From contig CAVPAE010000006.1 of NCBI GenBank assembly GCA_963701455.1, positions 900,458 through 964,457 on the forward strand: a stretch of DNA of 64,000 nt. The letters are read 5' to 3'. Made by a program: the position numbers and the translations under genes. The stretch comes from an uncultured Gammaproteobacteria bacterium. GTDB taxonomy: Bacteria > Pseudomonadota > Gammaproteobacteria > UBA9214. Shown here one piece after another: positions 1-37,850 of this stretch (position 1 is its first letter; the number at the start of each line of letters is the position of its first letter). The notes under the pieces are model-generated. The model was not told where the DNA came from. It was given only the letters and a program-made list of their open reading frames with translations, and searched no databases.

Positions 1-1
1 T

Positions 2-370: not shown

Positions 371-375
371 ATCAT

Positions 376-780: not shown

Positions 781-835
781 CAAACGCCTCCAAGGCGACG
801 CGGCTCCGCCGCGCGCTTGAGGCGAGGCGTTAGGC
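775..835 (+). other. attC recombination site (cassette 2)
   Basis: GCCTAAC at 775-781 and GTTAGGC at 829-835. Dyad symmetry aacgcctc...gaggcgtt. A nearly identical copy occurs at 4739-4799. Confidence 0.7.
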
Positions 836-910
836 ATCATATGACTAGAGAACAAAGGGGCTTGGTGCTCTACTGGATGTTCGGAGGAGTTGTTATTCTG
901 GTTGGAGCTA

Positions 911-2065: not shown

Positions 2066-2067
2066 TA

Positions 2068-3209: not shown

Positions 3210-3332
3210 AGCACATTGCTTCTAGATATCAAATTTCAAGAATTAGCTTTATTGGGTGTTTCAGCTTTTTATGGATTGGTTTCGCTGTTTCAGGGTAATC
3301 ATCCCTTTTTTAACCGGCACCAAAAGTAGACG

Positions 3333-4157
3333 TCATGCTGCTACCAGCATGTGTTTTGGTGGAAAGCCACCATTGGCCTTGTTGGGCCGTTCATGATTGT
3401 AGAACCAGAGCCACTGCGTAGCATAGTCCTGAACCTCTTCGATTGAGTCGAACTGGTACTGGCTCAGCCAGCTGTAGCGAACCGTTCGGTTGTAGCGTTC
3501 GACATAGGCATTCTGTTGTGGCTTGCCTGGCTGGATGAATTCCAGCTGGATGTCGTGCCTGCCCGCCCATACTTCCAGGTCCTGACTGATGAATTCCGGG
3601 CCGTTGTCACAACGTAGCCGGCCAGGTTTGCCGCGCCATTCGATGATCTGATCCAGCGCCCGGATCACACGTACGGCGGGCAGCGAGAAATCGGCTTCAA
3701 TGCCCAGCCCCTCACGGTTGAAGTCATCCAGCACATTGAACAACCGGAAGGTACGACCATCCGTCAGCTGATCATGCATGAAGTCCATGGACCAAGTCGC
3801 ATTCGGCGCTTCGGGCACTGTCAGTGGCACAGGTTTTTCACGCTGCATTCGTCGCTTGGGCTTGATTCGCAGGTTCAATTCCAACTCGCAGTAAATCCGA
3901 CGGATACGCTTGTGGTTCCAGGCAAAACCCTTGACGTTACGCAGATAGTCCCGGCACAGACCGAAGCCCCAGTCCTTCTGATTATGCGTCAACCGGACCA
4001 GCCAGTCGGCAATCTCGGCATTCTCATCGGACAGGATCGGTTGGTAACGATAGCAGGTCTCGCTGATGCCAAAGGCCACGCAAACCAGGCGAACACTGGC
4101 ACCGTATGTCGATGCCGCTTCCTTGGCCATCTCCTTGCGTCGAGATGGCCTCACCAC
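3333..4157 (-). CDS. IS3-family transposase OrfB (integrase catalytic core)
   Basis: 274 aa with a DDE/rve-type core ([10 protein letters not shown]..., ...CDNGPEFIS...). Confidence 0.85.
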
Positions 4158-4417
4158 TTTTTTGCCAGCGCCTCCTGGACCATCTCCGCCTTGAGACGCT
4201 CATCGGCATACATCTTCTTCAGCCGCCGGTTCTCGTCCTCCAGCTCCTTCAGGCGCTTCATCAGTGAGGCATCCATCCCTCCGAACTTGGCGCGCCACTT
4301 GTAAAATGCCGCGCTGCTCATGCCGTGTTCCCGGCACAGCGCCGGCACCGGCGTCCCGGCCTCGGCCTGCTTCAGAATCGCCAGGATCTGGCTGTCACTA
4401 TAACGTGATGTTTTCAT
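4151..4417 (-). CDS. IS3-family transposase OrfA (helix-turn-helix)
   Basis: 88 aa with a helix-turn-helix and leucine zipper. It overlaps OrfB at the AAAAAAG heptamer (minus strand, about 4152-4160), consistent with a -1 programmed frameshift. Confidence 0.8.
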
Positions 4418-4738
4418 GCAGAATCTCCTCTTAACCTATTATGAGAAAATTCTACTTCTGATGTCAGCTAGTTTTGGGGATGATTACCTCAGGACTTCTC
4501 ATACTATCGAGGATACGGAAGCGGAAGACAGTTGCTTGGTAAATTTATTGAGTGTCATCCCAAATTAAAAGTATGGACAGTAGGCTACTGTGTGTTTGTA
4601 TTACCGTACTTAATTTATAAGATTCAAGCTGATAATGAGGTTTCTGGAGTGTTGTACTTTTTGAGCCTTCTACTACTGATCGGGCTATTCGTATATGTAT
4701 CAGAGGTTGAGCGTTTTCATTCAATGGGCGACAAGAAT

Positions 4739-4799
4739 GCCTAACAAACGCCTCCAAGGCGACGCGGCTCCGCCGCGCGCTTGAGGCGAGGCGTTATGT
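4739..4799 (+). other. attC recombination site (cassette 3, duplicate of the 775-835 site; core GTTATGT)
   Basis: Identical to attC 2 apart from the last bases of the core, which derive from the downstream cassette. Confidence 0.65.
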
Positions 4800-4834
4800 T
4801 TAAAAAACAAAAATATTGGAGCCTCTAGATTTAA

Positions 4835-5488
4835 ATGGATACAAATACATGGTTAATAACTGTTTTTGGCATATATATAGCGAGTGTTGTCACGTACTCA
4901 ATAGTATATTTCCGGTTGTATGAAAAAGATCACTCTCGTTTTCTATTTAATGAAAAGGCCATGGAGAAGCAGCATAACAACCTTATCGATAAATTAAATA
5001 AAACCACTTCAGATTCCATCAAAAACAGCCCGTTACTTTTAGATGTTTTAGGTTATTTAGAAAAGCATCAGGAAATTAAAAGTATTAAAAATAAATGGAT
5101 CCTACTTGAATCTGGTAATAGCTTTAAATACAGCAGGGATGCCTTTGCACATCAAGGAGGTGCGCATGTTTTGACCACCTTAAAAATAAGAGATGAAAAA
5201 GAAGAATTGATTTTTGACCACAGATGGAACGACGTAGATGGGTTAATAAAGATAATTTCGGAACACATGTCTAGCACAGAGGCGCTAATTAAATCTTTAA
5301 GTCATAAAATAAGCACATCTGAAAACCAGTATCCTGATTTTTGGTCATATTTTGACTTTTTATATTTTAGTGTAATTAGCCAAACCACTGTTGGATATGG
5401 TGATATTCTCCCGAACTCTACTTTGATAAGGAAAGTCGTAATCACTCTAGTAATGCTAGGCCTACTTACTATTTGTTGTCATAATTAA
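4835..5488 (+). CDS. Cassette-encoded 2-TM potassium-channel-like protein (selectivity filter TTVGYGD) with a ~135-aa domain inserted between TM1 and the pore helix
   Basis: 217 aa. TM1 is residues about 6-27. The pore helix and filter are FSVISQTTVGYGDILP. The C-terminal TM is VVITLVMLGLLTICC. Confidence 0.55.
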   Translation: MDTNTWLITVFGIYIASVVTYSIVYFRLYEKDHSRFLFNEKAMEKQHNNLIDKLNKTTSDSIKNSPLLLDVLGYLEKHQEIKSIKNKWILLESGNSFKYSRDAFAHQGGAHVLTTLKIRDEKEELIFDHRWNDVDGLIKIISEHMSSTEALIKSLSHKISTSENQYPDFWSYFDFLYFSVISQTTVGYGDILPNSTLIRKVVITLVMLGLLTICCHN

Positions 5489-5507
5489 TCTGTCTTTTCA
5501 GGCGCAA

Positions 5508-5580
5508 ACATAACAAATCGTTCATGTGGGAATTTTGTTACGCTGCGCTTCACAAAATCCCCATAACTCAAACGTTAGGC
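5508..5580 (+). other. attC recombination site (cassette 4; degenerate inverse core ACATAAC, core GTTAGGC)
   Basis: Core GTTAGGC at 5574-5580 is preceded by ctcaaac as in attC 1. Internal pairing aacaaa/tttgtt. Confidence 0.45.
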
Positions 5581-5606
5581 AGCTACCATGAGCCATAAAG
5601 GGATAC

Positions 5607-5801
5607 ATGAACTTTAACGGACTACAAAAGACTTATTGGGAACAGCAAATTGCGCGTGTAGAACGTGTTCGCGAGCAGATAGCTTCCCGACTGAATATCA
5701 GTCCCGGTCGCACCATCCCCGACACAACAGATCTTGCTATAGGCAACAGGTCGCAGATTGTCTGCAGCCATAATGTTCATCGATATTTGTGGATTCTCTA
5801 A
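5607..5801 (+). CDS. Small ORF at the start of cassette 5 (64 aa). It may be an independent small protein or the frameshifted N-terminus of the downstream cyclase.
   Basis: ATG with a good ribosome-binding site (aaaggga). It overlaps the cyclase ORF by 44 nt in another frame. The cyclase frame has a stop only 6 codons before its start. Confidence 0.25.
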   Translation: MNFNGLQKTYWEQQIARVERVREQIASRLNISPGRTIPDTTDLAIGNRSQIVCSHNVHRYLWIL

Positions 5802-6360
5802 TCGTCCATCTGAGACAGAGGCAGAACAGGCAGCGTTAATGGCTGCGCTCAATCTGTTTTTTTCTGAAATGATTAAAATTGCGGAAGACTATGGCGGGAC
5901 TGTAGAAAAGAATACCGGTGATGGTTTAATGGCCTATTTTGAGGATGGAACTTCAACACCGCCAGAAAATGGGCCACACAGAGCAGTCGCGTGTGCCTTA
6001 ACCATGATGGCAGCTTCAGAGCATTTGCTGAATCCAATTCTTGCGAGATCGGACATCGACCCTATTCAGTTTCGCATATGCATTGATTCGGGCAACGTGA
6101 CAATAGCCAAGCTTGGTGCAGCTAGACGATTCAATGCGGTAGTGGCAATAGGTACAACTGCTAATGTTGCATCAAAGATGCTCGCAACTGCCAAAGCCGG
6201 ACAAATACTTCTAGGCGAGAATGTAAAAGCAAAACTGCCTTTAGAATGGCAGGTTTCTTGGGTGAAATTGCATACGTACAAGACAGGGTGGGTATTCCGT
6301 ACTAACGAACAACCCTATTCCTTTTATCTGTTCGACGCACATTGGGCAAGGTTACTGTAA
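5758..6360 (+). CDS. Class III nucleotidyl (adenylyl/guanylyl-type) cyclase catalytic domain, stand-alone (~200 aa)
   Basis: CHD (cyclase homology domain) motifs: RRLSAAIMFIDICGFS (metal-binding Asp), EKNTGDGLMAYF (second Asp), FRICIDSGNVTIAKLG, GTTANVASKM. Start is TTG at 5758 or ATG at 5773. Confidence 0.7.
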   Translation: MSAAIMFIDICGFSNRPSETEAEQAALMAALNLFFSEMIKIAEDYGGTVEKNTGDGLMAYFEDGTSTPPENGPHRAVACALTMMAASEHLLNPILARSDIDPIQFRICIDSGNVTIAKLGAARRFNAVVAIGTTANVASKMLATAKAGQILLGENVKAKLPLEWQVSWVKLHTYKTGWVFRTNEQPYSFYLFDAHWARLL

Positions 6361-7001
6361 TGGGAAATGACTCTAATGAATTGGCCTCGAAAAGCCAAAT
6401 TCCAATTCCTGCTGAGCTTGAGGGTAAAAACCTGGGGACTCCTGCCCGGCAAGGGAAAAGCGGTGATGTTAGTGGGGTTGTCGCAGAATCAGAGCAATCA
6501 GATACGAAAAAAATAGATCATGTGGATAAATATGCCAAGCATCTCCACTCGTACATTCGGGAATATATATCCGCAGCTGATAAAAAGGCTTCATTTGTGT
6601 TTGCAATTGGAGCTGCACTGTTGGTGTATCTTTATGAAAAGAATCTTGCCGTAACCTGGGTCAAGGCTGTAAATACATGGACCCTTAATGAAGGGATCAT
6701 CTTTTTAGCAATTATAGGCCTCGCTATATCGTGCCTTCTTTCAATTTTGGTTGTTGTCCCTTTTCTTAAAGGCTCAAGGAGAGGGTTTGTTTTTTGGGAC
6801 TCCATCGCTGAATTTAGCAACTCTTCTGAGTTTTCGAATGAGCTATTTAAGCTGGGCGACTCACAGCTAACGGAAGAAATACTACGGCACTCTTACGAGC
6901 TCTCGCGCGTGTGCAAACGGAAATATCTATTACTGAACTGGTCATTAAGAGTTGGTGCAGTAGGCGCAATATGTACGTTGCTTGTTCTTGTAAAAGGGTG
7001 A
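6342..7001 (+). CDS. Multi-TM membrane protein co-encoded with the cyclase; candidate membrane-disrupting effector (SLATT-like topology)
   Basis: 219 aa. Overlaps the cyclase ORF by 19 nt. N-terminal soluble/low-complexity region, then TM helices FVFAIGAALLVYLY and IIFLAIIGLAISCLLSILVVVPFL, a ~70-aa soluble segment, and a C-terminal TM VGAVGAICTLLVLV. Confidence 0.55.
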   Translation: MGKVTVMGNDSNELASKSQIPIPAELEGKNLGTPARQGKSGDVSGVVAESEQSDTKKIDHVDKYAKHLHSYIREYISAADKKASFVFAIGAALLVYLYEKNLAVTWVKAVNTWTLNEGIIFLAIIGLAISCLLSILVVVPFLKGSRRGFVFWDSIAEFSNSSEFSNELFKLGDSQLTEEILRHSYELSRVCKRKYLLLNWSLRVGAVGAICTLLVLVKG

Positions 7002-7010
7002 TAAAACGCT

Positions 7011-7065
7011 GCCTAACAAGGCGCCCCAGCCGGACGCTTCGCGCCGCTGGGCTTGGTCGTTAGGC
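7011..7065 (+). other. attC recombination site (cassette 5)
   Basis: GCCTAAC at 7011-7017 and GTTAGGC at 7059-7065. Internal dyad gcgccccagc...gctgggcttggtc. Confidence 0.7.
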
Positions 7066-7118
7066 ATAACGAGTTAAAGTGCCAGTATATTTATAGATAG
7101 AAAAGGGCTATTACACTT

Positions 7119-8003
7119 ATGAAATACGAAAACCCTAATGAATTACGCAAAGCTTGGCTGTCAAATGATAAAACATGGTCGCAGGCTCGTAAAAAAGAGT
7201 GGGGACGAATTAATGAAAAAATTAAGAGTCGCGCGTTCCAGTTTGTTAGAGCTCATGACAATATCAAAAGACTGAAAAGCTATTTTTTGACTGGCTTTCC
7301 GCCAGGCCCGGTTCCTAATGACGAACTAGATCTGCATAAATATTATTTTCGACCCCTTGCAGGGATTCCAGGAAATATCCTCTTTGAATGCTGGCTTTCA
7401 CCCGATCACTCTAAAGAATATTTCTCTGAAGTTATTGAAAGAAACCCGGACAACCTTGTAGATAGCCGTAACAGATTTAGAAAAATGGTGCGGGATTTTT
7501 TTCCTGAAAAAGAGGGGACACTATTTGACGGGCTCGAATCGGATTTCTATCTATTGTTGGGTGGGAACAGGTGTAGAAAAGATATCGAATATCCTGATAT
7601 TGATGACGATGAATATAAAAAAAGATGTCACACGCACTTTAATGAATGCCTGCCAATTATTAATCGGGTACTTTTTGCTGAGCCTGAAGACGTGAATACT
7701 AAAGATATTGCCCATTTGATGGTGGCAGAATTCATTGATAGTTATACAGGTTCATTTGAATTAGTAGTTAACCATGAATATGAAGAAGGGCTAACGTTCA
7801 AAGACTATGGTCTTGATGAAATCCGTCGTAGCCAGCTCGAACGCTGTAGTGAAATACTAAAGGCGGAAGATAAATTACACCCTCGACAGATTGAAATTGC
7901 AACGCAGCTTTTGAGCTCAATAAATGAGTTGAAATTACATGAAGAACTTGAAAAAGTGATCTCACCATATTTGATAGACACCATAAATTCGCATGATGCC
8001 TAA
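7119..8003 (+). CDS. Cassette-encoded hypothetical soluble protein (294 aa)
   Basis: Clean ORF with a ribosome-binding site. Its TAA stop lies inside the next attC inverse core. No recognisable motifs. Confidence 0.55.
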   Translation: MKYENPNELRKAWLSNDKTWSQARKKEWGRINEKIKSRAFQFVRAHDNIKRLKSYFLTGFPPGPVPNDELDLHKYYFRPLAGIPGNILFECWLSPDHSKEYFSEVIERNPDNLVDSRNRFRKMVRDFFPEKEGTLFDGLESDFYLLLGGNRCRKDIEYPDIDDDEYKKRCHTHFNECLPIINRVLFAEPEDVNTKDIAHLMVAEFIDSYTGSFELVVNHEYEEGLTFKDYGLDEIRRSQLERCSEILKAEDKLHPRQIEIATQLLSSINELKLHEELEKVISPYLIDTINSHDA

Positions 8004-9925: not shown

Positions 9926-10065
9926 TAAGAAGACAGGGCGTCAGTGCACATGTATTTCTGATCTTCGGGCAAATCGTGCCCTGACACTCTTTCCCCCGGT
10001 CCGCTCCGGGTCAGCCCATTGGATGCAGCGCGGGGTGGCGTATACTGGGCTGAAAGACAGGGAAA

Positions 10066-12420
10066 ATGTCCATGCGACTGCGTCCTCAAGTCAACCTGTT
10101 AACCGGCCTCATCATCGCCATCATCCTGCTCGGGGTGATCAGCGCGGCCACGGTGTTCGTGAACGCGCGCACCTACCGTGACCTGGCGTTTGATTTCCAG
10201 CGCCAGTACATGACCCAGATGGTCGCCGCTGAATCCGCCAGCATCCTCGCCGAGGAAGATCGTAACGCACGCAATCTCGGCCTGCGCATCCAGGAGCAGG
10301 ACGATTTCCTGCAGGCGTTCGACGCCGGTGACAGCGTTGCGATTTCGGCCGTGCTCGATGCACTGTACGACCAGTCAACGACCACAGCCAGTCTCGTGGA
10401 TGTGGTTGCCTTTTACGTGTTCGGTAACGATTCCAGGCTGCTGGCAAGGGCAAGCCGCCTCGTGCCGGCGGCAGCGGCGGGCGGGGAAGCGCTGCTGTGT
10501 CCGGGACTGATCACCAAGGCGCGGGTGCGCGCCGGACCGATGCGCGAGAAGCCGCTGTACGAACTCTGCCTGTTTGACGGCTTGCCCTACCTGGCATCAC
10601 TGCTGCCGGTCGGCGAACCGGAGCCGGGCGGCTACCTGCAGATAGTGACCGACCCGGTACCGAAACTCCTGCGGATCGGTCACCGGCTGAAGATGCCGGT
10701 GCAGATCCGCCGCACCGACGGTGCGGTCATTCATACCGCGTCCGCGTGGGTGGATGCCCGCACTGACCACGAGGTGATGTCCGAGTATGTCCTGACGGCC
10801 AATAATTCCCGGCCGGCGCTGAACATTGCCGCCCAGCGCAATGCCGACAGCCTGGTGATGCAGATCGAGAAGACCAACAACCGGCTGCTGTTCGTGGTGG
10901 GGCTGATTATTCTCGCGACCGTGGTGCTGGCGCTGTTGATGGTCAAGTTCTCGGTACTCAATCCGCTGCGCGATATCAGCTACCAGTTCCGGGTTTCCAG
11001 GAAGCGGGATGCGGCCGCGACCGATGCCGTGGCGGAGCCGGGCGGGCCGGTGAGTTTTCATGCGCTGGGGCAGCTGTACGAGACCCTGCACGACATGGCC
11101 ATCCGCGATCCGCTCACCGGCACCTACAACCGTGCGCTGCTGGAGGACCGTCTGAAGCAGGTGATTGCCGAGCACCGCCGGACCCCGGGCAAGGCTGCCA
11201 TCCTGCTGACAGACATGGTGCGATTCAAGTACGTCAACGATCTGCTCGGTCACCATGCCGGCGACCTGCTGCTCAAGGAGGTCGTGGTGCGCATCGGCCG
11301 GGTGCTGCGCGAATCGGACACCCTGGCGCGGCTTGGCGGTGACGAGTTCGTGATCATCCTGCCCGACACGGATGCCGAGCAGGCGATCCAGGTGGCGGAA
11401 AAGATCATCCAGTCCATGGTGCCGGAATTCGAGGTGGAGCAGAATCGGCTGTCGACGTCGGTATCCATCGGCATCGCCCTGATGCCGGAGCATGGCGACG
11501 ATGTCGAGACCCTGCTGCGCAACGCCGACTATGCAATGTATTCCACCAAGCATGACCGCCGCGGCTACGCGATCTACGACCCTGCGACCCGGGAAGACAT
11601 CAACGTCGACAGGATGCAGCTGGACGGCATGCTCAACGAGGACATACGCCGCAACGACCTGTTCCTGGTCTACCAGCCGGTGATCGAGTTCGGCAGCCAC
11701 CGCGTCAGTTACCTGGAGGCGCTGGTGCGCTGGCGCCAGCCGGACGGCCGGGTGCTGATGCCGGGCGACTTCGTGCCCGTCGCCGAGCGCAGCGGGCTGA
11801 TCCGGCAGCTCTCCGAATGGATCATCGACCGCGTCTGTCGCGAGCTTGCCATGCTGCAGCAGGACAACCCCGGGATGCGCGCCGGCATCAACCTGTCGAT
11901 GTACAACCTGCATGACCTGAACCTGAAACAACAGATCCATGATGCGCTGTCCCGGCACCGGCTCCGGCCGGAATCACTGCTGCTGGAAATCACCGAGACC
12001 GGCGTGATGCTGGACCCGGAGCAGGTCATCGAGACACTGGGGGAGCTTGCCGAGATGGGGCTCAGCCTCTCCATCGACGATTTCGGCACCGGCCACGCCT
12101 CGCTGGTCTACCTGAAACGCCTGCCAGTGCAGTCACTCAAGGTGGACAAGTCGTTCGTGGTGGACATGGACAGCGACGAGGACAATTTCTCCATTGTGCG
12201 CGCCACCATTGACCTGGCGCACAGCCTCGGCCTGACGGTGACGGCCGAGGGGGTCGAAACCGGTGCGGTCTACGCGCAGTTGCGGGGCATGGGCTGTGAC
12301 TACTACCAGGGGTATTATGTCGGCAGGCCGAAAGACCGCGAGGCCATCAGGGAATGGCTGGAGGAGAACAACCGGGGGAGGGTCGAGCAGGGCCGGCGCC
12401 CGGGGTGGAGCGCCGGATAG
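10066..12420 (+). CDS. Sensor protein with GGDEF and EAL domains (c-di-GMP synthase/phosphodiesterase), N-terminal periplasmic sensor flanked by 2 TM helices
   Basis: GGDEFVIIL motif, RDPLTGTYNR, and an EAL domain (LEALVRW, DDFGTG). Confidence 0.85.
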   Translation: MSMRLRPQVNLLTGLIIAIILLGVISAATVFVNARTYRDLAFDFQRQYMTQMVAAESASILAEEDRNARNLGLRIQEQDDFLQAFDAGDSVAISAVLDALYDQSTTTASLVDVVAFYVFGNDSRLLARASRLVPAAAAGGEALLCPGLITKARVRAGPMREKPLYELCLFDGLPYLASLLPVGEPEPGGYLQIVTDPVPKLLRIGHRLKMPVQIRRTDGAVIHTASAWVDARTDHEVMSEYVLTANNSRPALNIAAQRNADSLVMQIEKTNNRLLFVVGLIILATVVLALLMVKFSVLNPLRDISYQFRVSRKRDAAATDAVAEPGGPVSFHALGQLYETLHDMAIRDPLTGTYNRALLEDRLKQVIAEHRRTPGKAAILLTDMVRFKYVNDLLGHHAGDLLLKEVVVRIGRVLRESDTLARLGGDEFVIILPDTDAEQAIQVAEKIIQSMVPEFEVEQNRLSTSVSIGIALMPEHGDDVETLLRNADYAMYSTKHDRRGYAIYDPATREDINVDRMQLDGMLNEDIRRNDLFLVYQPVIEFGSHRVSYLEALVRWRQPDGRVLMPGDFVPVAERSGLIRQLSEWIIDRVCRELAMLQQDNPGMRAGINLSMYNLHDLNLKQQIHDALSRHRLRPESLLLEITETGVMLDPEQVIETLGELAEMGLSLSIDDFGTGHASLVYLKRLPVQSLKVDKSFVVDMDSDEDNFSIVRATIDLAHSLGLTVTAEGVETGAVYAQLRGMGCDYYQGYYVGRPKDREAIREWLEENNRGRVEQGRRPGWSAG

Positions 12421-12457
12421 CCGCGGCCGGTATCTACAGGACAGGGGAATACAGACG

Positions 12458-12649
12458 ATGATGAGATATTCCGTATTATTGGTACTGCTGCTGGCAGGCT
12501 GCGGCGGCGAGCAGGAGCCGCCGGCCGAGAAGCGTGGCCATGTCTGGCAGGAACAGATCAACACCATGGACAAGGCGAGGGATGTCGATACCCTGCTGCA
12601 GGATTCCGCCGCCGCGCAGCGCCAGGCGATCGATGCACAGGCACAGTAA
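12458..12649 (+). CDS. Small lipoprotein (63 aa)
   Basis: MMRYSVLLVLLLAGCGG signal peptide and lipobox. Ribosome-binding site aggggaa. Confidence 0.4.
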   Translation: MMRYSVLLVLLLAGCGGEQEPPAEKRGHVWQEQINTMDKARDVDTLLQDSAAAQRQAIDAQAQ

Positions 12650-12739
12650 GACTTTGCCGTTGCCTGGCCGGCGCTAAACTCCGCCGCCAGTGGCGGCACG
12701 ACAACAACGCTGCCGGTTGGGGCGGTTGTCGTCGGGTAA

Positions 12740-14215
12740 ATGAATATGACGAGAATAATGACAATAAGCAGTGGACTGGCTCGGGTGGGCAAAACGCACC
12801 TGGCGGTGAATCTCGCGCTGGAATTCGCACGGCGCGGCCGGCGTGCCGCGGTTTACCATGAGCTGGGATCCGTCACGCCCATCGAGGCCGTACTGGCCCT
12901 GCCGCATGCCGTCACGCCGCTGCGTCGCGCCACGGACGCGCAGGAGGCGAATGATTTTATTCGCCGCGGTTATCTCGGTATCGATATTCTTTCCTGTCGC
13001 CAGCCGCTGCGCGCCTGGGCCGGCCATGACGCGCAAAGGCTGGCCGCCTGCCTCGATGGCCTGCAGGCGCAGCAGGAATGCGACGACCTGCTCATCGATA
13101 CCTCGGGCATGGATCCGCGCAGCCTGGTTGCCTGCTGCCGTGCCTCCGCCAGCGTCATCCTGGTCGTGACGCCGGATGCCCATTCCCAGGCAGAGGCCTT
13201 TGCCCTGTTGAAGGTGCTGGTGCTCAACGGTTATGCCGGCGAACTCTGGCTGCTGGTGAACCGCGCACCTGACGCGGAGAGCGCAGAGGAAATCCAGCGG
13301 CGTATCAGCACCCAGGTGCAGGCACATCTTGGCGGGGAGATCCCGCTGCTGTGCAGCGTGCCCGAGGATGCACGGGTCGGCAGGGCGCAGGGTTGTCTGC
13401 AGGCTTTCAGCGCGATATTTCCCGACTGCGATGCGGCTGCCGCGATCGTCAGGCTGGCCGATGTCCTGCCGCCGGGGCCGGCCACTGCCAGCGTGCATGG
13501 CGCGCTCCGCAGCTTCTGGGAACGCTTTATCGAGATCATGCAGGAACCTGTGCACCTGGCGGGAAATGCCCTGCTGCAGGAAGCTCCCGTTGCGGCATCC
13601 GGACAAGCGCATGTCGCGGCCGGTGCCGCTCCCGCGGAAATGAACCTGTTGTCGCATGCCGGCGAACTTGCGGACCTGCCGGTTGTGCTGGAGCGGGCTG
13701 CCGAATCCCTGCAAACAGCGGCGGCGACGCTGGCTGCCTTCGCGGCCCGGCTTGAAGAAACCGGCGACATCCTGCCGGAAACGCCGGCGGCGCAGCTGGA
13801 GAGCAGCCAGTTGCCAGCCGTGGTGGCGCAGTTGCTCGCGGTACTGGCTGCGGATGCGGTGCATGCGCAGGTCGAATTGTGGCTGGATAGCGCCAGCGTC
13901 GCCACCGCTGACGCTGACTGGCTGCAGCCGGGACAATACCTGAAATATACCCTGCAAATGGCGCTGCCGGGCGGTGCCGCGGAGACGCGGTTGCGGTCGC
14001 TGCTGGACGATATCCCGGTGCAGCCGGCGCCAGGCGCGGAGGAAGGCACCCTGCAGGTAATCCTGACGCCGCGGCACGATGCCTGTCTTGATGTCCTCAT
14101 CAGCTCCGGTGACGGGGTACGCATCCATGCCTGGCTGCCGGTCGCCACGGCCGTACCGGCCGCGGCCAGCCTGCCGGTGGCGGGCGTGGTACCCGCCGCC
14201 AAGCGTCTGCACTAG
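12740..14215 (+). CDS. ParA/MinD-like P-loop ATPase with a long Ala-rich C-terminal extension
   Basis: N-terminal MTISSGLARVGKTHLAVNLA is a deviant Walker A motif. The long antisense ORFs on the opposite strand are GC artefacts. Confidence 0.45.
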   Translation: MNMTRIMTISSGLARVGKTHLAVNLALEFARRGRRAAVYHELGSVTPIEAVLALPHAVTPLRRATDAQEANDFIRRGYLGIDILSCRQPLRAWAGHDAQRLAACLDGLQAQQECDDLLIDTSGMDPRSLVACCRASASVILVVTPDAHSQAEAFALLKVLVLNGYAGELWLLVNRAPDAESAEEIQRRISTQVQAHLGGEIPLLCSVPEDARVGRAQGCLQAFSAIFPDCDAAAAIVRLADVLPPGPATASVHGALRSFWERFIEIMQEPVHLAGNALLQEAPVAASGQAHVAAGAAPAEMNLLSHAGELADLPVVLERAAESLQTAAATLAAFAARLEETGDILPETPAAQLESSQLPAVVAQLLAVLAADAVHAQVELWLDSASVATADADWLQPGQYLKYTLQMALPGGAAETRLRSLLDDIPVQPAPGAEEGTLQVILTPRHDACLDVLISSGDGVRIHAWLPVATAVPAAASLPVAGVVPAAKRLH

Positions 14216-14217
14216 TG

Positions 14218-14344
14218 ACCCCTGAATAATTCATGTATCGCGTCATTGCGAGCGTAGCGAAGCAATCTCGTGACATGTGCCTCAATTACTTACAGATTGC
14301 TTCGTCACCGTGTTCCTCGCAATGACGAAATATTCAGGGGTTCC
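14218..14344. repeat. About 125-bp nested palindromic (MITE-like) element
   Basis: Nested inverted repeats: cccctgaata/tattcagggg, gtcattgcgag/ctcgcaatgac and gaagcaatct/agattgcttc. A related element occurs at about 21990-22265. Confidence 0.5.
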
Positions 14345-14449
14345 CTGGTAGAAAAAATATTTCAATCATCCGGCCGGGTGTGAATAAAATACCGGCCTGA
14401 AATTCTCCAGCGGCTTTTACCCGGGTACAGGCAACCGGCCGAGACACGT

Positions 14450-15886
14450 GTGAAGATGGTTTTACAGCGCAACCTCAGCGACAGGCTGTTCACCCCCGTC
14501 GATGCCGCTTCACTGGCGGTGTTTCGCATCGGCTTCGGCTGCATCATGCTGGTCGAGATGTTGCGCTATTTCCACTTCGACTGGATCCGGCGCTACTACG
14601 TCACCCCGGAGTTTCACTTCAGCTACTACGGTTTCGACTGGGTGCAACCCCTGGGCGAAACCGGCATGGTCCTGCTTTTCGCGGGGCTTGCGCTGCTGGC
14701 GTTTTTCATCGCCATCGGCTATCTCTACCGCTTCAGCATTATCGCTTTTACGCTGGGCTTTACCTGGGTCTTTCTGCTTGACCAGACCCAGTACCTGAAT
14801 CACTTCTATCTCGTCATCCTGCTCGGGATTTTGTTGAGCGTGCTGCCGGCGCAGCGCGCCTTCTCCGTCGATGCCCGGCTGCAGCGCAGGCAGGGCACGG
14901 CGGAGGTGCCCGCGTGGGCGGTCTGGGTGCTGCGGGCCCAGTTCGAGGTGATGTATCTGTACGCGGGTATCGTCAAGCTGAATCCGGACTGGCTGCGCCT
15001 CGAACCCATGGCGATCTGGATGACACGCGGAGCCGAACTGCCGTTGATCGGCCCGTTGATGACGGAGCCGCTGGCCGTGGCCGCGGCCAGCTATGGCGTG
15101 ATTGTCCTGCACCTGGTCGGCGCGCCCCTGCTGTTGTGGCGGCGTACCCGGCTCGGTGTGTTTCTCATCTACGCGGCCTTTCATACCACCAACCACTTCA
15201 GCTTCAACATCGGTATCTTTCCCTGGCTCACGCTGTTCGGCACCCTGATCTTTTTCGAGCCTGACTGGCCGCGGCGTGTCTGGCGGGTGCTGACCAAGCG
15301 CGCGGCAGTGGCAACGCAGGCGGATGCCGGTGATGGCGGGAACGGTGTTGCGGCGGCAACGCCGGCTGTGGCGATGGGCAGGCGCCTGGTCATCGGCCTG
15401 CTGGCCGCATGGTTTGCCTTCCAGGTGCTGGTGCCGCTGCGGCATCTGCTGTACCCGGGCAATGTCAGCTGGACGGAGGAGGGACACCGTTTCGCCTGGC
15501 AAATGATGTTGCGCGAAAAGGGAGGCACCGCGAAATTCAGCGTGACCGACCCGGCAAGCGGCCGCGTCTGGCATATCAACCTGCCGGATTACCTGACCCC
15601 GCGCCAGGCCCGGAAAATGGCGACGCGCCCCGACATGCTGCTGCAGTTTGCCCACCACCTGCAACGGGTCTGGGAACGGGAAAAGAACCTGCCGGGCGTC
15701 GAGGTGCGCGTGACGACCGCCATCTCGCTGAACGGTCGCGCGCCGGTGCTGCTGCTGGACCCGGCAAGGGACCTGGCCGCCGTGCCGCGCGACCTGCGTG
15801 CTGCGGACTGGATCCTGCCGCTGACCGAGCCGCTGCCTGCGATTACCTTCAGGCGCCTGTTTCAAGACACAATCGCGGTCAGGTGA
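14450..15886 (+). CDS. HTTM domain (vitamin-K-carboxylase-like) integral membrane protein
   Basis: LAVFRIGFGCIMLVE...DQTQYLNHFYL. Multi-TM N-terminal half. Confidence 0.6.
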   Translation: MKMVLQRNLSDRLFTPVDAASLAVFRIGFGCIMLVEMLRYFHFDWIRRYYVTPEFHFSYYGFDWVQPLGETGMVLLFAGLALLAFFIAIGYLYRFSIIAFTLGFTWVFLLDQTQYLNHFYLVILLGILLSVLPAQRAFSVDARLQRRQGTAEVPAWAVWVLRAQFEVMYLYAGIVKLNPDWLRLEPMAIWMTRGAELPLIGPLMTEPLAVAAASYGVIVLHLVGAPLLLWRRTRLGVFLIYAAFHTTNHFSFNIGIFPWLTLFGTLIFFEPDWPRRVWRVLTKRAAVATQADAGDGGNGVAAATPAVAMGRRLVIGLLAAWFAFQVLVPLRHLLYPGNVSWTEEGHRFAWQMMLREKGGTAKFSVTDPASGRVWHINLPDYLTPRQARKMATRPDMLLQFAHHLQRVWEREKNLPGVEVRVTTAISLNGRAPVLLLDPARDLAAVPRDLRAADWILPLTEPLPAITFRRLFQDTIAVR

Positions 15887-16795
15887 CCGCTCCTGCACGT
15901 AATAGAAGCACCTGTAGGAGTACCCTGAAGGGCATAAACGCCGCCCTTCGGCGCGATTGTTTGAGGCGCCCATCGCGGTCAGGAGACCGCTCCTGCACGT
16001 AATAGAAGCGCCTGCAGGAGCGCCGTCCTTCGGCGCGATTGCTTGAGGCAGGCAATCGCGGTCAGAAGACCGCTCCTGCACGTAATCAAGAAGCACCTGT
16101 AGGAGCGCCGCCCTTCGGCGCGATTGCTTGAGGTCAAGCCCATCGCGGTCAGAAGACCGCTCCTGCACGTAATAGAAGCACCTGCAGGAGCGCCGTCCTT
16201 CGGCGCGATTGCTTGAGGCGCCCATCGCGGTCAGAAGACCGCTCCTGCACGTAATAGAAGCACCTGCAGGAGCGCCGTCCTTCGGCGCGATTGCTTGAGG
16301 CAGCCAATCGCGGTCAGGTGACCGCTCCTGCACGTAATAGAAGCACCTGCAGGAGCGCCGTCCTTCGGCGCGATTGCTTGAGGCAGGCAATCGCGGTCAG
16401 GTGACCGCTCCTGCACGTAATAGAAGCGCCTGCAGGAGCGCCGTCCTTCGGCGCGATTGCTTGAGGCAGGCAATCGCGGTCAGAAGACCGCTCCTGCACG
16501 TAATAGAAGCGCCTGCAGGAGCGCCGTCCTTCGGCGCGATTGCTTGAGGTGCCCATCGCGGTCAGGTGACCGCTCCTGCACGTAATAGAAGCGCCTGCAG
16601 GAGCGCCGTCCTTCGGCGCGATTGCTTGAGGCGGCAATCGCGGTCAGGTGACCGCTCCTACACGTAATAGAAGCACCTGTAGGAGCGCCGTCCTTCGGCG
16701 CGATTGCTTGAGGCAGGCAATCGCGGTCAGAAGACCGCTCCTACACCACCAGGTGCACCTGTAGGAGCGGCCTTTGGCCGCGATCGCTTTGCTGG
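15872..16795. repeat. Tandem array of about 11 copies of an ~82-bp palindromic repeat unit
   Basis: Unit: atcgcggtcagRRgaccgctcctgcacgtaatagaagcRcctgYaggagcgccgYccttcggcgcgattgcttgagg plus about 8 variable bases. Each unit contains two hairpins. Confidence 0.85.
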
Positions 16796-16809
16796 TTGCC
16801 TGTTGAGAA

Positions 16810-17217
16810 CTAGAAGCGGTCGCTTCCCGTGCGGCCCAGGTTGTTGATCCTGCGCCTGCCCAGCAGTTTCAGGAGCAGGTTGCGCAGTGCGCGCAGTACC
16901 GGGTACAGCAGGCGCGACAGTCGCGCCGACCTGAACAGCCAGTAGTTCAGACGGTTGAAGATGCCGGAGCGGGTGCTGAGCAGCGCCAGGGCGTGTATGG
17001 CGTCGGCGCCGTAGTAGAGCTGGTCATCCAGCTTGAGGACCATCCCCTGGTCGATATCCAGACCGTGTGCGGTAATCTCCTGCAGGATGTCACTGTGCTC
17101 GCGGGCGTTGACGATCTGGAGTTCGCCGGCGGCGGCACGGATACGCACCGCCTGGCAGTAGTTGTGGCACACGGGGCACTCGCGGTCGTAAACCAGTAGC
17201 ACCTGCTTGCCTGGCAT
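16810..17217 (-). CDS. DCC1-like thiol-disulfide oxidoreductase family protein (DUF393)
   Basis: VYDRECPVCHNYCQ motif near the N-terminus, 135 aa. This family often neighbours HTTM proteins. Confidence 0.6.
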   Translation of the reverse strand: MPGKQVLLVYDRECPVCHNYCQAVRIRAAAGELQIVNAREHSDILQEITAHGLDIDQGMVLKLDDQLYYGADAIHALALLSTRSGIFNRLNYWLFRSARLSRLLYPVLRALRNLLLKLLGRRRINNLGRTGSDRF

Positions 17218-17306
17218 ATCCCGGATTCGGTTTGCCTGAGGAATTGCGGTTGCGTCGGGGCGTGGCGGCTGGCGGAGTTCTTCCGCCAGCCGCGAACCCG
17301 GTCTGA

Positions 17307-18149
17307 CTATTCCATGATTTCGATGCTGGCCGAGTTCTTCAGTTCCTCGACGTGCTGCTGCAGCTGCTGGTTGGCGAGCAGCATTTTCAGGCGGTCCTTG
17401 ACGTCCTCGAATGGCGGCGGGGTGCTTTCACGGGAATCATCCAGGATGATGACGTGCCAGCCGAACTGGGTCTGCACCGGCTCCTTGGTGTACTCGCCCT
17501 TTTCCAGTTGTGCCGCGGCCTCCGAGAACGGTGCGACCATCTGGCCGGCGCCGAACCAGCCCAGCTTGCCGCCGCTGCTGCCCGACGGACCGGTGGATTT
17601 TTCCTTGGCCAGTTCCGAGAAGTCCGAGCCCTGGTCGAGCATCACGATCACGGCCTTGGCTTCATCCTCGGTTTCAACCAGGATGTGACGGGCATTGAAT
17701 TCCTTGCCCGGTTTGCCCACCTGGGCGTCGTAGAGTTCCTGCGCGGCTTCATCGGTGACCGGGTTGCTGTTCATGAAGTCCTTGATCGCGGCACCGGCCA
17801 GTGCAGTGCGCTCCTGCTGGTCCAGCGCGGCGACGACCATCGGCAGCGCGTTGAGTCCCTTGCTGATACTTTCCTGGCGCATCAGCTCCAGGGAAATCAG
17901 CTCGTTCAGCACGGCTTCCTGGTCACTGTCTTCCGGATTGGTGCTCTGGCTCTTGCGCATTGCGCTATAGACATCCAGCACGGACTGGGTCAGCGGGGTG
18001 CCATTGACGGTAGCGATCACAACGCCTTCCACGACCGGCGCAGTGGCCGCAGGCGCGGTGGCATCTGTCTGTCCAGCGGATGGCAGCTTGTCGCAGCCGG
18101 CAACCAGGGCCAGCGCGGCGAGTAACGGTAAAGCGTGACGATAGTTCAT
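17307..18149 (-). CDS. Peptidyl-prolyl cis-trans isomerase, parvulin/PpiC family, lipoprotein
   Basis: LAALALVAGC lipobox. Parvulin domain FNARHILV...GGKLGWFGAGQMVAPF...GWHVI. Confidence 0.8.
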   Translation of the reverse strand: MNYRHALPLLAALALVAGCDKLPSAGQTDATAPAATAPVVEGVVIATVNGTPLTQSVLDVYSAMRKSQSTNPEDSDQEAVLNELISLELMRQESISKGLNALPMVVAALDQQERTALAGAAIKDFMNSNPVTDEAAQELYDAQVGKPGKEFNARHILVETEDEAKAVIVMLDQGSDFSELAKEKSTGPSGSSGGKLGWFGAGQMVAPFSEAAAQLEKGEYTKEPVQTQFGWHVIILDDSRESTPPPFEDVKDRLKMLLANQQLQQHVEELKNSASIEIME

Positions 18150-18155
18150 ACAGTG

Positions 18156-18449
18156 TTACCTTTCAGGGTTTGTGGATTGGAATTCACCAGGCGTTGCGGC
18201 CTGGATGCTGAGAGCATGGATGTCGCGCTGCATCATATCACCGAGGGCATCATAGACCAGGCGGTGCCGCTGGATGAGCGGCTTGTCCTGAAACGCGGCG
18301 GCAACGATGTGCACGATGAAATGGCCGCCGCCGCTCGCGGCACCCGCGTGTCCGGCATGTTTGGCGCTTTCGTCGATAATTTCCAGTGATACCGGCTGCA
18401 GGGCCTCTGTCAGGCGGGTGCGGATCCGGTCGATGCGTTCGCTGGTCAT
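18156..18449 (-). CDS. BolA family protein
   Basis: MTSERIDRIRTRLTEALQPVSLEIIDESAKHAGHAGA...HFIVHIVAAAFQDKPLIQRHRLVYDAL...HALSIQA. The ORF track extends it spuriously upstream. Confidence 0.75.
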   Translation of the reverse strand: MTSERIDRIRTRLTEALQPVSLEIIDESAKHAGHAGAASGGGHFIVHIVAAAFQDKPLIQRHRLVYDALGDMMQRDIHALSIQAATPGEFQSTNPER

Positions 18450-18450
18450 G

Positions 18451-18750
18451 TCAGGGCAGTACCTGCTTGAAGGGTTTGACGGTGACCTGTGCATACACAC
18501 CGGCGGGCACGTAGGGATCGGCATCCGCCCATGCCTGGGCATCTTCCAGCGAGGCAAACTCCGCGACCACCAGGCTGCCGCTGAAGCCGGCCGCACCGGG
18601 ATCGGGGCTGTCGATGGCCGGGTGTGGGCCGGCCAGCACCAGGCGCCCGGCCTCCTGCAGTTGCTCGAGCCTGGCCAGGTGAGCGGGGCGCGCCTGCAGC
18701 CGGTCGGCCAGGCTGCCTTCGCGATCCTCGCTGATGATGGCGTACAGCAT
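18451..18750 (-). CDS. YciI family protein
   Basis: [28 protein letters not shown], 99 aa. The upstream extension in the ORF track is a GC artefact. Confidence 0.7.
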
Positions 18751-19292
18751 TAATCGCCGCCCTCCGGTGATTCCATGTAGCGGCTGAGATAGAACGCCTG
18801 GGCGAACACGAATACCAGCGTCAGTCCCATCATGCCGAACAGCTTGAAATTCACCCAGGTGTCTTCGCTGTAGTTGTAGGCGACGTACAGGTTCAGCAGT
18901 CCCATGAACGCGAAGAACAGCGTCCATGCCCAGTTGAGGCGTGCCCACACCGGTGACGGTGCGGAGATGGCGTGTCCCATCATGCGCTCCACCAGGGGAC
19001 GCTTGCCGATGAACTGGCTGCCGAGAAAGGAGATGCCGAACAGCCAGTTGACAACGGTTGGCTTCCACTTGATGAACACCGGGTCGCGCAGCGCGAGGGT
19101 GAGGCCGCCAAACAGGACCAGGATGCCCAGCGTGATCAGGTGCATCTTTTCGAACTTGCGGTGCTTCAGCCAGTATGCCCCGGTTTGCACGAAGGCGGCG
19201 CCGATGGCCACGGCCGTGGCCACGTAAATGTCGTACAGCTTGTACGCCAGAAAAAACAGCAGGATCGGAAACAGGTCAAAAAGAAACTTCAT
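18750..19292 (-). CDS. yciB: Intracellular septation protein A (YciB/IspZ)
   Basis: [26 protein letters not shown]. 180-aa membrane protein next to yciI and bolA. Confidence 0.8.
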
Positions 19293-25927: not shown

Positions 25928-25994
25928 CGGCTGCATTCGCATGCGGCAGCTTGCAGCGGCGGTGTCCGACCCTCGGTATTCACTGCCTTATGGC

Positions 25995-26200
25995 GTTGCT
26001 ATCCCGTTAACTCCTTCTCCCATCGGAGGGTGTCGTAAAAGTACCCTCTCCCTGCGGGAGAGGGTTAGGGTGAGGGGATAAAACAGGATAACCGCCTGAT
26101 TTTATATCCCCTCATCCCAGCCTTCTCCCGGAGCACCCAAAGAACGGGCATAAAGGAGAAGGGGATACACCCTTTTACAACACCCTCCAACGGGAGAAGG
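25995..26200. repeat. About 190-bp element with long-range inverted repeats
   Basis: ggagggtgtcgtaaaag...cttttacaacaccctcc. Internal hairpin ccctctccctgcgggagaggg. Shares cccaaagaacgggcataaag with other repeats. Confidence 0.4.
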
Positions 26201-26417
26201 AATTCTCTTTTGTTTCGACTAGTGGGTCGTCATGTCCTGTGCTTCAATATCATCGTAATCAGCTTTGTATATATGATGTTTCTGGATTTCAATACAACTT
26301 AACGGAACAGCAACGACCATATGATTATCAATCCCGCCTGTTTTTTCACGACGCGGCACGCCTGCACGCGCTCGCCGCGTCAGGCCGCTAGCGGCGTCGC
26401 CCGCTAGTCCCGCTCCC

Positions 26418-29214: not shown

Positions 29215-29460
29215 TTGCTATCGCGGTCAGTACCCAAAGAACGGGCATAAAGAGATCGCTTCTAAACCTGCTAGTTTAACTGTAGGAGCGCCGCCCTTCG
29301 GCGCGATTGTTTGAGTTCGCAATCGCGGTCAGTACCCAAAGAACGGGCATAAAAAGACCGCTCCTACACCTGCTAGCCCACCTGTAGGAGCGCCGTCCTT
29401 CGGCGCGATTGTTTGAGGCCGCAATCGCGGTCAGGAGACCGCTCCTACAGCAGGTCCGCG
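29215..29460. repeat. 3 tandem copies of the 82-bp-family palindromic repeat (variant modules)
   Basis: atcgcggtcag...ctgtaggagcgccgcccttcggcgcgattgtttgag units. Some carry a tacccaaagaacgggcataaagag module. Confidence 0.7.
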
Positions 29461-30215
29461 GCGCTCAGTTGCTGGCCGGTGATGCCCTGGCTGTCGGGGC
29501 CGAGCAGGAACAGGAATGGTTTGACGACGTCCGCCGGTTCCGGCAGTGAATTGCGGTCTTCATAGGGATAGGCCATGCGCCGCAACGCGGTGCGCACCGG
29601 GCCCGGGTCCAGGCTGTTAACCCGTATCGGCGTATTCGCTTCGAGTTCATCCGCCAGTATCTGCATGAAGCCCTCGGCGCCGGCCTTGGAGACGGCATAA
29701 GCGCCCCAGTAGGCCTTGCCGTGGCGGCCAGCGGCGTCGGCGGCAAACACGATCGAGGCGTCCCGGCTTTGCTGCAGCAGGCCGAGACAGGCCATGGTCA
29801 GCAGGTAGGGCGCATTGAGATTGACCTGCAGCGTCTCGAACCAGAGTTCGTGCTCGAAATTGGCGAACGGCACCAGGGCGCCGAGGTGTGCCGCGTTGTG
29901 CACCAGCCCGTCGAGGTGGCTGAATTCCTTTTCGATGGTTTCGGCCAGCGTGGCGTAGTCATCCGGCGTGGCGCCCTTGAGATCCAGTGGATACAGGGCG
30001 GGCTCGGGATGACCGGCGGCGGTGATTTCGTCGTAGGCCTGCTCCAGTGCACGCACGTCACGGTCCAGCAGGATGACGCTGGCGCCATGCGCGGCGCAGG
30101 CACCGGCGACGGCGCGGCCAATGCCGTTGGCGGCGCCGGTGATCAGGATGACCCGGTCGTGCAGCAGTTCGGGGGCGGGGTTCCAGTCATGCAGGGTGTC
30201 GGGGATGGCGTTCAT
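29445..30215 (-). CDS. SDR-family oxidoreductase, YciK-like
   Basis: ILITGAANGIGRAVA (TGxxxGxG), YAVSKAG (YxxxK). Confidence 0.75.
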   Translation of the reverse strand: MNAIPDTLHDWNPAPELLHDRVILITGAANGIGRAVAGACAAHGASVILLDRDVRALEQAYDEITAAGHPEPALYPLDLKGATPDDYATLAETIEKEFSHLDGLVHNAAHLGALVPFANFEHELWFETLQVNLNAPYLLTMACLGLLQQSRDASIVFAADAAGRHGKAYWGAYAVSKAGAEGFMQILADELEANTPIRVNSLDPGPVRTALRRMAYPYEDRNSLPEPADVVKPFLFLLGPDSQGITGQQLSAADLL

Positions 30216-31029: not shown

Positions 31030-31375
31030 TTCCGTCCTGTAGGAGCACCCTAAAGGGCATAAACGCCGTCCTTCGGCGCGATTGTTTGAGGTTCGCATCG
31101 CGGTCAGAAGACCGCTCCTACACGCAATAGATGCACCTGTAGGAGCGCCGCCCTTCGGCGCGATCGTGCAAACATCCATCGCGGTCAGAAGACCGCTCCT
31201 ACACGCAATAGATGCACCTGTAGGAGCGCCGTCCTTCGGCGCGATCGTGCAAACATCCATCGCGGTCAGAAGACCGCTCCTACACAACCAGAAGCACCTG
31301 TAGGAGCGCCGCCCTTCGGCGCGATTGTCCGGGTCTGGTATCGCGGTCAGGAGACCGCTCCTACAGGAGGATGAT
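31030..31375. repeat. 4 tandem copies of the 82-bp-family palindromic repeat
   Basis: Same ctgtaggagcgccgYccttcggcgcgat...atcgcggtcagaagaccgctcctaca units. Confidence 0.7.
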
Positions 31376-37744: not shown

Positions 37745-37850
37745 TGCTTAAGTCCGCATCGCGGTCAGTACCCAAAGAACGGGCATAAAGAGACCGCTCC
37801 TACAGCCAATAGTTGCACCTGTAGGAGCGGCTTTCAGCCGCGATTTGCGC
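37745..37850. repeat. Single copy of the 82-bp-family palindromic repeat
   Basis: atcgcggtcagtacccaaagaacgggcataaagagaccgctcctaca...cctgtaggagcgg. Confidence 0.5.

Follow-up and report, generated by a model that had tools for sequence, protein, structure and literature searches.

Eleven tandem REPINs between convergent genes of an uncultured gammaproteobacterium: very probably a tandemly amplified cluster of GTAG-tagged REP elements

Three described systems of repetitive extragenic palindromic elements (REPs) come closest to the locus considered here. In Pseudomonas fluorescens SBW25, two inverted REPs with a short spacer form a long hairpin whose two arms carry compensatory changes, the REP doublet forming a hairpin (REPIN); near-identical REPINs, together with their flanking sequence, make ordered tandem clusters, and clusters adjoin genes for REP-associated tyrosine transposases (RAYTs) (PMC3116915). 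In the bacterial interspersed mosaic elements of type 2 (BIME-2) of E. coli, inverted y and z2 REPs alternate strictly with short linkers between them, and the tandem copies are homogeneous at each locus and vary in number between strains; a GTAG tag precedes the hairpin foot on its 5′ side, and the gene tnpA_REP has REPs on its flanks, an arrangement termed a REPtron (PMC3333891). Di Nocera et al. 2013 (PMC3733652) place the GTAG-1 REP family in Pseudomonas, Xanthomonas, Thauera and Thioalkalivibrio sp. K90mix. The DNA at issue is a stretch of 64,000 nucleotides (nt), here called the window (positions 900,458 to 964,457 of contig CAVPAE010000006.1, assembly GCA_963701455.1), from an uncultured gammaproteobacterium. 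The block of tandem repeats at 15872-16799 of the window is very probably a tandemly amplified cluster of REPINs, non-autonomous GTAG-tagged REP elements with a RAYT (a TnpA_REP-type HUH/Y1 transposase) as their cognate enzyme.

A sequence-only reading of this DNA had reported eleven tandem copies of an 82-base-pair (bp) double-hairpin repeat, near-identical except for about 8 bp. The number and the coordinates hold. With unit boundaries set by anchoring on ATCGCGGTCAG, the block divides into 11 head-to-tail units, and Tandem Repeats Finder returns 15939-16746 (period 83, 9.7 copies, 93% matches, score 1342). Variation between units is also much as it had been described, lying mostly in 5–8 nt of the linker, with additional two-state sites in the loop of the Y-type REP (GAAG/GGTG/GGAG), the spacer (GCAC/GCGC), the tag (GTAG/GCAG) and the loop of the Z-type REP (T/C). 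The tag is GCAG in 15 of the 22 REPs. Unit 1 owes its extra length to the 18-nt module that it carries.

15872..16784, + strand: whole array, 11 tandem REPINs or 22 REP singlets, Y-type (− strand) alternating with Z-type (+ strand)
15872..15971, + strand: unit 1, 100 bp; Y REP at 15872-15896, Z REP at 15914-15957 bearing the 18-nt module
15972..16054, + strand: unit 2, 83 bp; GCAG tag on both arms
16055..16141, + strand: unit 3, 87 bp; tags GCAG/GTAG, giving a G.T mismatch; spacer 2 nt longer, linker longer
16142..16223, + strand: unit 4, 82 bp; GCAG tag on both arms
16224..16306, + strand: unit 5, 83 bp; GCAG tag on both arms
16307..16389, + strand: unit 6, 83 bp; GCAG tag on both arms
16390..16472, + strand: unit 7, 83 bp; GCAG tag on both arms
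16473..16554, + strand: unit 8, 82 bp; GCAG tag on both arms
16555..16636, + strand: unit 9, 82 bp; GCAG tag on both arms
16637..16719, + strand: unit 10, 83 bp; canonical GTAG tag on both arms
16720..16799, + strand: unit 11, about 80 bp, divergent terminal copy; the right REP, at 16761-16784, is the GGCC-stem variant GTAGGAGCGGCCTTTGGCCGCGAT

The unit consists of two copies of one 25–26 nt element, the REP, in opposite orientation, and is thus a REPIN. The Y-type REP reads G[T/C]AG-GA-GCGGTC-NNNN-GACCGC-GAT on the − strand and the Z-type REP reads G[T/C]AG-GA-GCGCCG-YCCTT-CGGCGC-GAT on the + strand; each has a 5′ GTAG or GCAG tag, two unpaired bases (GA), a perfect 6-bp stem, a loop of 4–5 nt and a 3-nt GAT tail. 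Within a unit the order is Y REP, 14-nt spacer, Z REP and a linker of 14–18 nt, and the Y(−)/Z(+) alternation is strict. The tags that face each other across the spacer form the palindrome CGCTCCTGCA...TGCAGGAGCG, the REPIN hairpin, in 11 of 11 units, while the GAT tails of adjacent units, facing across the linker, form a second, CGCGATTGC...GCAATCGCG, whose length is 9 bp in roughly half of the cases and 6–7 bp in the rest. Both palindromes had been ascribed to every unit; this stands for the first and, at full length, fails for the second at the remaining junctions. Similarly, ‘double hairpin’ is apt for a pair of inverted REP singlets but misses a third hairpin, the one inside each REP by which the element is defined.

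Folded as DNA, two units give −55 kcal/mol (z = −6.0 against dinucleotide shuffles), and folded as RNA −99.7 kcal/mol (z = −6.65), with 0 of 200 shuffles folding as well in either case; the minimum-free-energy folds join the two tag-proximal arms. According to these models, the unit as single-stranded DNA or RNA can adopt two folds, either the long REPIN hairpin or a clover of two REP hairpins plus the inter-unit hairpin. Position 2 of the tag covaries across the arms. In the window it forms 7 G/C pairs, 7 A/T pairs and 1 mismatch, and in REPINs at other loci, among the matches listed, 83 A/T, 2 G/C and 2 mismatches (n = 87; counts halved because the palindrome matches on both strands).

A unit profile run with nhmmer recovers 17 complete copies and 3 partial ones in the window, all on the + strand and confined to four sites (15872-16789, 29220-29449, 31040-31366 and 37758-37845), with no further copies in the window beyond these. 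Counted as REP singlets there are 40, of which the array has 22 and the three other sites have 18 between them. Outside the window, an exact-match scan with the 26-nt Z REP, one genome per species, gave at least 95 stretches in at least 15 assemblies, and the matches listed are all from uncultured Gammaproteobacteria (Thiogranum, Ectothiorhodospiraceae, Thiohalobacter, Chromatiaceae or unclassified). A Pseudomonas origin, to which the look of GTAGGAGCG...CGCGAT might point, is rejected on this distribution. Loci from related genomes are denoted here by L-numbers, and counts for the family cover the window and 95 such loci. They comprise 360 copies of the generic REP element, in 328 of which all six stem pairs are formed. 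The stem occurs in three versions, each fully compensated: GCGCCG/CGGCGC (188 copies), GCGGCC/GGCCGC (89) and GCGGTC/GACCGC (44). Position by position, pairing is kept as stem position 4 switches between CG and GC (196/146), position 5 between CG and TA (290/49) and position 6 between GC and CG (198/139). The head is GTAGGAGCG in 277 copies, GCAGGAGCG in 34 and GTGGGAGCG in 25, and head GTAGGAGCG and the tail stay fixed across the stem versions. The existence of three compensated stem versions implies that the hairpin is under constraint, and a fixed head and tail around compensated stems are the pattern that would be expected of a hairpin recognised by a protein. The element is a short multicopy palindrome, inside the 20–40 nt range of the class, with an unpaired tag, an extragenic 3′ site and compensatory stem changes, which are the features of a GTAG-superfamily REP. 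The GCAG tags of the array fall within the GYAG degeneracy of the REP tag described in PMC3733652.

A candidate for the protein comes from two of the related loci. At L093 (2276-2734) and L024 (3528-3986) there is an open reading frame (ORF) of 152 amino acids (aa) that matches Pfam Y1_Tnp (E 1.3e-11, 45 bits, the cut-off being 23 bits), carries the HUH motif HLHWL and has a sole match in the PDB, E. coli TnpA_REP (4ER8, E 9e-8). Each of these RAYT genes has tandem REPINs of the array's design on both sides, the GGTC/GACC variant included. To judge from sequence, the arrangement is a REPtron, a RAYT with its REPIN cluster, as in E. coli and Pseudomonas (PMC3333891, PMC3116915). The earlier description of the array as REP/BIME-like is in this way upheld and made specific: the unit is a REPIN of GTAG REPs, of a family that flanks RAYT genes in relatives on the evidence of Pfam, PDB and gene context.

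With the REPINs of SBW25 (PMC3116915) the array has in common the two inverted REPs about a short spacer, the long hairpin whose arms both show compensatory changes, the ordered clusters of near-identical tandem REPINs with flanking sequence, and clusters that adjoin RAYT genes. It differs in REP sequence, in its shorter unit (tags about 40 nt apart, as against 71 or 110 bp), in having 11 REPINs as against 4, in its host, an uncultured Thiogranum/Ectothiorhodospiraceae-like gammaproteobacterium, and in there being no RAYT in the window. BIME-2 (PMC3333891) is matched in the strict alternation of two inverted REP types with short linkers and in the homogeneity of tandem copies at a locus, with a copy number that varies (between strains for BIME-2, here between species, 11 versus about 3.5); E. 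coli REPs are also matched in the GTAG tag 5′ of the hairpin foot and in flanking a tnpA_REP-type gene. However, there is no sequence similarity to the y and z2 REPs, and y/z2 REPs with S, s, l and r linkers were not found here. The stems of the array are perfect over 6 bp and lack the internal mismatch that E. coli TnpA_REP requires, while the E. coli REPs lack the extra GA bases and the GAT tail seen here. The array is an architectural analogue of BIME-2 and not a member of it.

The likeness to GTAG-1 (PMC3733652) is one of design. It takes in the GTAG tag, the two unpaired ‘GW’ bases (GA here), the short stem-loop and the conserved 3-bp tail, sub-families with alternative complementary stem residues, frequent clusters that include dimers with inward tags, and a 3′-end placement between convergent or co-directional ORFs. 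The array is distinguished by the GCAG tag in most of its units and by nested 18–21 nt modules in some copies. Tandem near-identical REPINs and BIME-2 with strain-variable copy number have already been described (PMC3116915, PMC3333891). The block is of a known class of bacterial junk-like repeat, large but ordinary, and notable for its length and its amplified GCAG variant alone.

In the proposed origin, RAYT-type single-strand transposition would have brought a REPIN or a small REPIN cluster to the place where two convergent genes have their 3′ ends. Local growth would have followed, by unequal recombination or replication slippage between units, and the unit that was amplified would by then already have mutated from GTAG to GCAG on both arms. 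Identity within the array is 0.894 (0.936 for units 2-10), as against 0.72-0.81 to units at the other window sites. The array has spacer and tail sequences of its own, CGTAATAGAAGC.C and TTGCTTGAGG, absent from the three other window sites, each of which has its own. GCAG compensated on both arms is present in 7 of the 11 units but, among the matches listed, in just 2 of 87 REPINs in other genomes (2 more have it on one arm only), and the variants of Y loop (GAAG/GGTG) and spacer (GCAC/GCGC) occur in the array in all four combinations. The identity within the array, the rare GCAG shared by its units and the four variant combinations argue for local duplication and recombination, and not for repeated insertion. 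The four combinations also give indirect support, along with the differing copy number, orientation or repeat family in relatives, to the earlier proposal that the array is a candidate recombination hotspot. Most likely it is selfish or nearly neutral DNA, tolerated because no gene is disrupted.

Several points weigh against this account. With 11 REPINs the array exceeds the maximum of 8 among sampled relatives, which leaves room for selection on length. Counted in Z REPs, the sample has 126 clusters, of size 1 (96 clusters), 2 (20), 3 (3), 4 (1), 5 (3) and 8 (2), the remaining one being this array with 9 strict matches, the largest in the sample; long arrays also occur at L080, L025, L085 and L007. 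The largest ordered cluster in P. fluorescens SBW25, that of 4 REPINs, is smaller too (PMC3116915). In E. coli, mutation of GTAG to ACGA abolished both binding and cleavage by TnpA_REP (PMC3333891), and by analogy the GCAG-tagged copies may be no RAYT substrates. No RAYT gene was found in the 64-kb window with a consensus and the L093 protein as queries (best tblastn E 0.17), and a cognate RAYT of the source organism is presumed from the relatives. Exact look-ups of three flanking proteins matched no record.

It is possible, though rather unlikely, that the host keeps the array for a function of the BIME-2 type, whether as a buffer between convergent transcription units (a barrier to exonuclease or read-through), as a gyrase-binding topological insulator or as a damper of HTTM translation. 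The position between convergent HTTM and DCC genes had been recognised from the outset, and Pfam matches and coordinates agree with it.

14450..15886, + strand: HTTM / vitamin-K-carboxylase-like protein, 478 aa (Pfam PF05090, E 1e-87; PF22777, E 1.5e-44)
16810..17217, − strand: DCC1-like thiol-disulfide oxidoreductase, 135 aa, convergent (Pfam PF04134, E 2.5e-12)

Placement of the array between them is exact. The TGA stop codon of the HTTM gene (15884-15886) lies inside the first REP hairpin, so that the last four codons (IAVR) and the stop are REP-encoded, and the last REP of the array ends 25 nt from the DCC stop codon. REPs at most about 15 nt from a stop codon reportedly reduce translation, an effect attributed to Liang et al. 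2015; by analogy, the first REP, over the HTTM stop codon, may damp translation of HTTM. Either strand is predicted to fold into a very stable structure, and in the introduction of PMC3333891 E. coli REP/BIME are reported to stabilise mRNA, to terminate transcription and to be bound by gyrase, IHF and Pol I. Such effects would be incidental under the main reading, by which, on the same analogy, the stable hairpins in the 3′ untranslated regions of both convergent mRNAs would be barriers to 3′-exonucleases or weak terminators, the first REP may damp translation of HTTM and the array may bind DNA gyrase. In favour of the main reading, all four sites in the window are intergenic and at gene 3′ ends, three of them convergent and one co-directional; the same 3′-end placement, convergent or co-directional, is reported for GTAG REPs in PMC3733652.

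Every relative examined has some REP-type element at this intergenic site, but its content is not conserved. One comparison is afforded by L012, which is syntenic (86% identity over window positions 10028-14215 and 88% over 16810-18901) and has about 3.5 REPINs of the array's family in opposite orientation. In L097 and L098, metagenome contigs whose DCC protein is 90% identical, there is a single REP of another GTAG family, GTAGCCCGGATGCAGCGTAGCGGAATCCGGG, and in L099 only a degenerate remnant.

L097, 2740-2830: other-family REP at the orthologous convergent site
L098, 990-1107: other-family REP at the orthologous convergent site

The site is repeatedly occupied by REP-type DNA, and the array itself is unconserved. 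The HTTM gene, moreover, is a deleted remnant in L012 and L097, and there is therefore little there to regulate. An intrinsic-terminator scan gave 3 sites where 1.2 ± 1.3 would be expected, a difference that falls short of significance and leaves no U-tract terminator signal above chance, and no promoter-like sites were seen in the terminator/promoter scan. Eleven hairpins are also more than such a function needs, since one or two would suffice. There is, further, a slim chance, the two taken jointly, that the exceptional length of the array, built of GCAG units on which a RAYT probably cannot act, came about because selection favoured a structural or topological element, immune to the RAYT, at this convergent site, or that the 18–21 nt module may be its own element.

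The HTTM gene is full length (14450-15886, 478 aa) in the window only, and remnants lie at L012 5160-5530 and L097 2841-3275 (about residues 1-147 and 440-475); with remnants at two orthologous loci, the gene is evidently decaying in relatives. Upstream of it, at 14218-14345, between a 491-aa gene and HTTM, is a palindromic insert resembling a miniature inverted-repeat transposable element, with terminal inverted repeats cccctgaata... / ...tattcagggg and core cattgcgagcgtagcgaagcaatc, which is absent from the L012 spacer.

Quite improbable is the alternative that the array was built by successive RAYT-mediated insertion of REPINs beside or into existing ones and not by local tandem duplication. 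REPs are known targets of further insertion, complex REP arrays possibly result from alternative RAYT processing of circular intermediates (PMC3733652, citing its reference 51), and the linkers, as the most variable part, could mark separate joining events. However, the spacer and tail peculiar to the array and the gap in identity within and between sites are not what such a course would leave; the period is regular at 82–83 bp; and the doubly mutated GCAG that is rare elsewhere and common to seven units should be a poor RAYT substrate (PMC3333891).

It is scarcely conceivable that the block is no REP array at all but a CRISPR-like array, an integron attC series, a protein-coding repeat, a set of plasmid-type iterons or an assembly artefact, for though the block shows a regular period, a short variable segment in every unit and ORFs running through it, these readings fail on the anatomy and on the dispersed, RAYT-linked distribution: the variable segments are of 5–8 nt only, where a CRISPR array would have direct repeats of 24–48 nt and unique spacers of like size, the unit is an inverted-repeat pair, the scanned flanking genes include none that are cas-like, 82/83 bp is not divisible by 3, no Rfam family was matched at gathering score in the whole window, the unit recurs at three further sites of the window and is also present, beside RAYT genes, in other genomes (at least 15), and unit-specific variants speak against a collapsed or duplicated assembly. 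The three antisense ORFs that had been called spurious (14510..16390, 16231..16473 and 16314..16637) are present and deserve the name, having no Pfam match above cut-off, lying antisense to a strong HTTM match and traversing a unit whose length is not a multiple of 3.

The remaining sites of the family in the window are as follows.

29220..29449, + strand: second site, 2 full REPINs whose Y loops both hold the 21-nt module, followed by a terminal Y REP; between convergent thioredoxin/HhH-GPD and SDR genes
31040..31366, + strand: third site, 3 full REPINs preceded by a Z REP that bears the module and followed by a Y REP; downstream of a Crp-family gene, convergent with a TonB-receptor gene
37758..37845, + strand: fourth site, one REPIN that has the GGCT/AGCC stem variant and whose Y loop holds the module; flanked by two genes of the − strand, 3′ of the one for a response regulator

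All three had been located by the sequence-only reading (at 29215-29460, 31030-31375 and 37745-37850), and its single copy at the last is right; by nhmmer its 3 copies at the first become 2 full and a half, and its 4 at the next become 3 full and two halves. The SDR gene (29445-30215, − strand) takes its TAG stop from the GTAG tag of the last REP there, at 29445-29448. The genes about the fourth site, for a response regulator and a CHASE2-cyclase, are co-directional. That all four sites in the window have one orientation, on the G-rich strand, is probably chance. A dependence of REPIN orientation on the replication strand was considered and rejected: the Z REP is on the G-rich strand in 50 of 99 clusters with an absolute GC skew > 0.02 (p = 1), and the inverted orientation in the ortholog L012 is also opposed to it.

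The module nested in some of these REPs has the consensus [T/C]ACCC-N4-7-GGGCA[T/C]AA[A/G], over 18–21 nt. As TACCCAAAGAACGGGCATAAA it is at 29231-29251, 29333-29353 and 37769-37789, with variants at 15921-15938 and 31046-31063. The earlier observation that it also appears at 26135 is correct, the start being 26134.

15921..15938, + strand: 18-nt module TACCCTGAAGGGCATAAA, inserted in the Z REP of unit 1 where the GTAGGAG head adjoins the stem
26134..26154, + strand: 21-nt module CACCCAAAGAACGGGCATAAA, in an unrelated hairpin's loop within a composite palindromic element at about 25990-26210
L050 1060-1140, L033 2860-2915, L004 7929-7980 and L008 1792: the module in relatives

It is placed in the Y-REP loop, at the junction of head and stem in the Z REP, or in loops of the unrelated hairpin family. 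Deletion of the 21 nt from a Y loop restores a normal 4-nt loop (GGTC-AGGA/AGAA-GACC). The module is always preceded by AG and is always on the strand of the REPIN, and in other genomes it is iterated from 2 to at least 5 times in tandem within one REP. It may, at a low probability, be a tiny element of its own that inserts or expands at hairpins. The composite intergenic element at 25990-26210, one loop of which hosts the 21-nt module, has arms at 26052-26083 and 26102-26133 (81% complementary) along with outer arms, and includes the widespread motif ccctctccc...gagagggttagggtgagggg.

Other repeats and one compositional feature of the window stand apart from the array. Two intergenic palindromes, at 35135-35182 and 35288-35362, are respectively a near-perfect 24+24 nt palindrome (96% complementary) and an inverted repeat with 31-nt arms of the cgtcattccggcgaaggccggaatc type, the latter probably another small repeat family. 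A separate tandem repeat at 62700-62883 has period 89, 2.1 copies and 78% matches (Tandem Repeats Finder). The first 8 kb (1-8000) have a G+C content of 0.466, as against 0.59-0.63 elsewhere in the window, and may be a foreign island.

Annotators would do well to mask the array as a REPIN/BIME-type repeat, to drop its three antisense ORFs and to recognise that HTTM and SDR have REP-encoded 3′ ends. Arrays of this kind break short-read assemblies; the L098 and L099 contigs end near DCC, stopping 120–150 nt past the gene. The 18–21 nt module, if a true separate element, would be a nested parasite of REPINs. More broadly, the REPIN-RAYT system, in ordered arrays of unusual length (5–11 REPINs), is extended to uncultured Gammaproteobacteria of the sulfur-oxidiser type, and the amplified GCAG units offer a natural test of RAYT-independent tandem growth.

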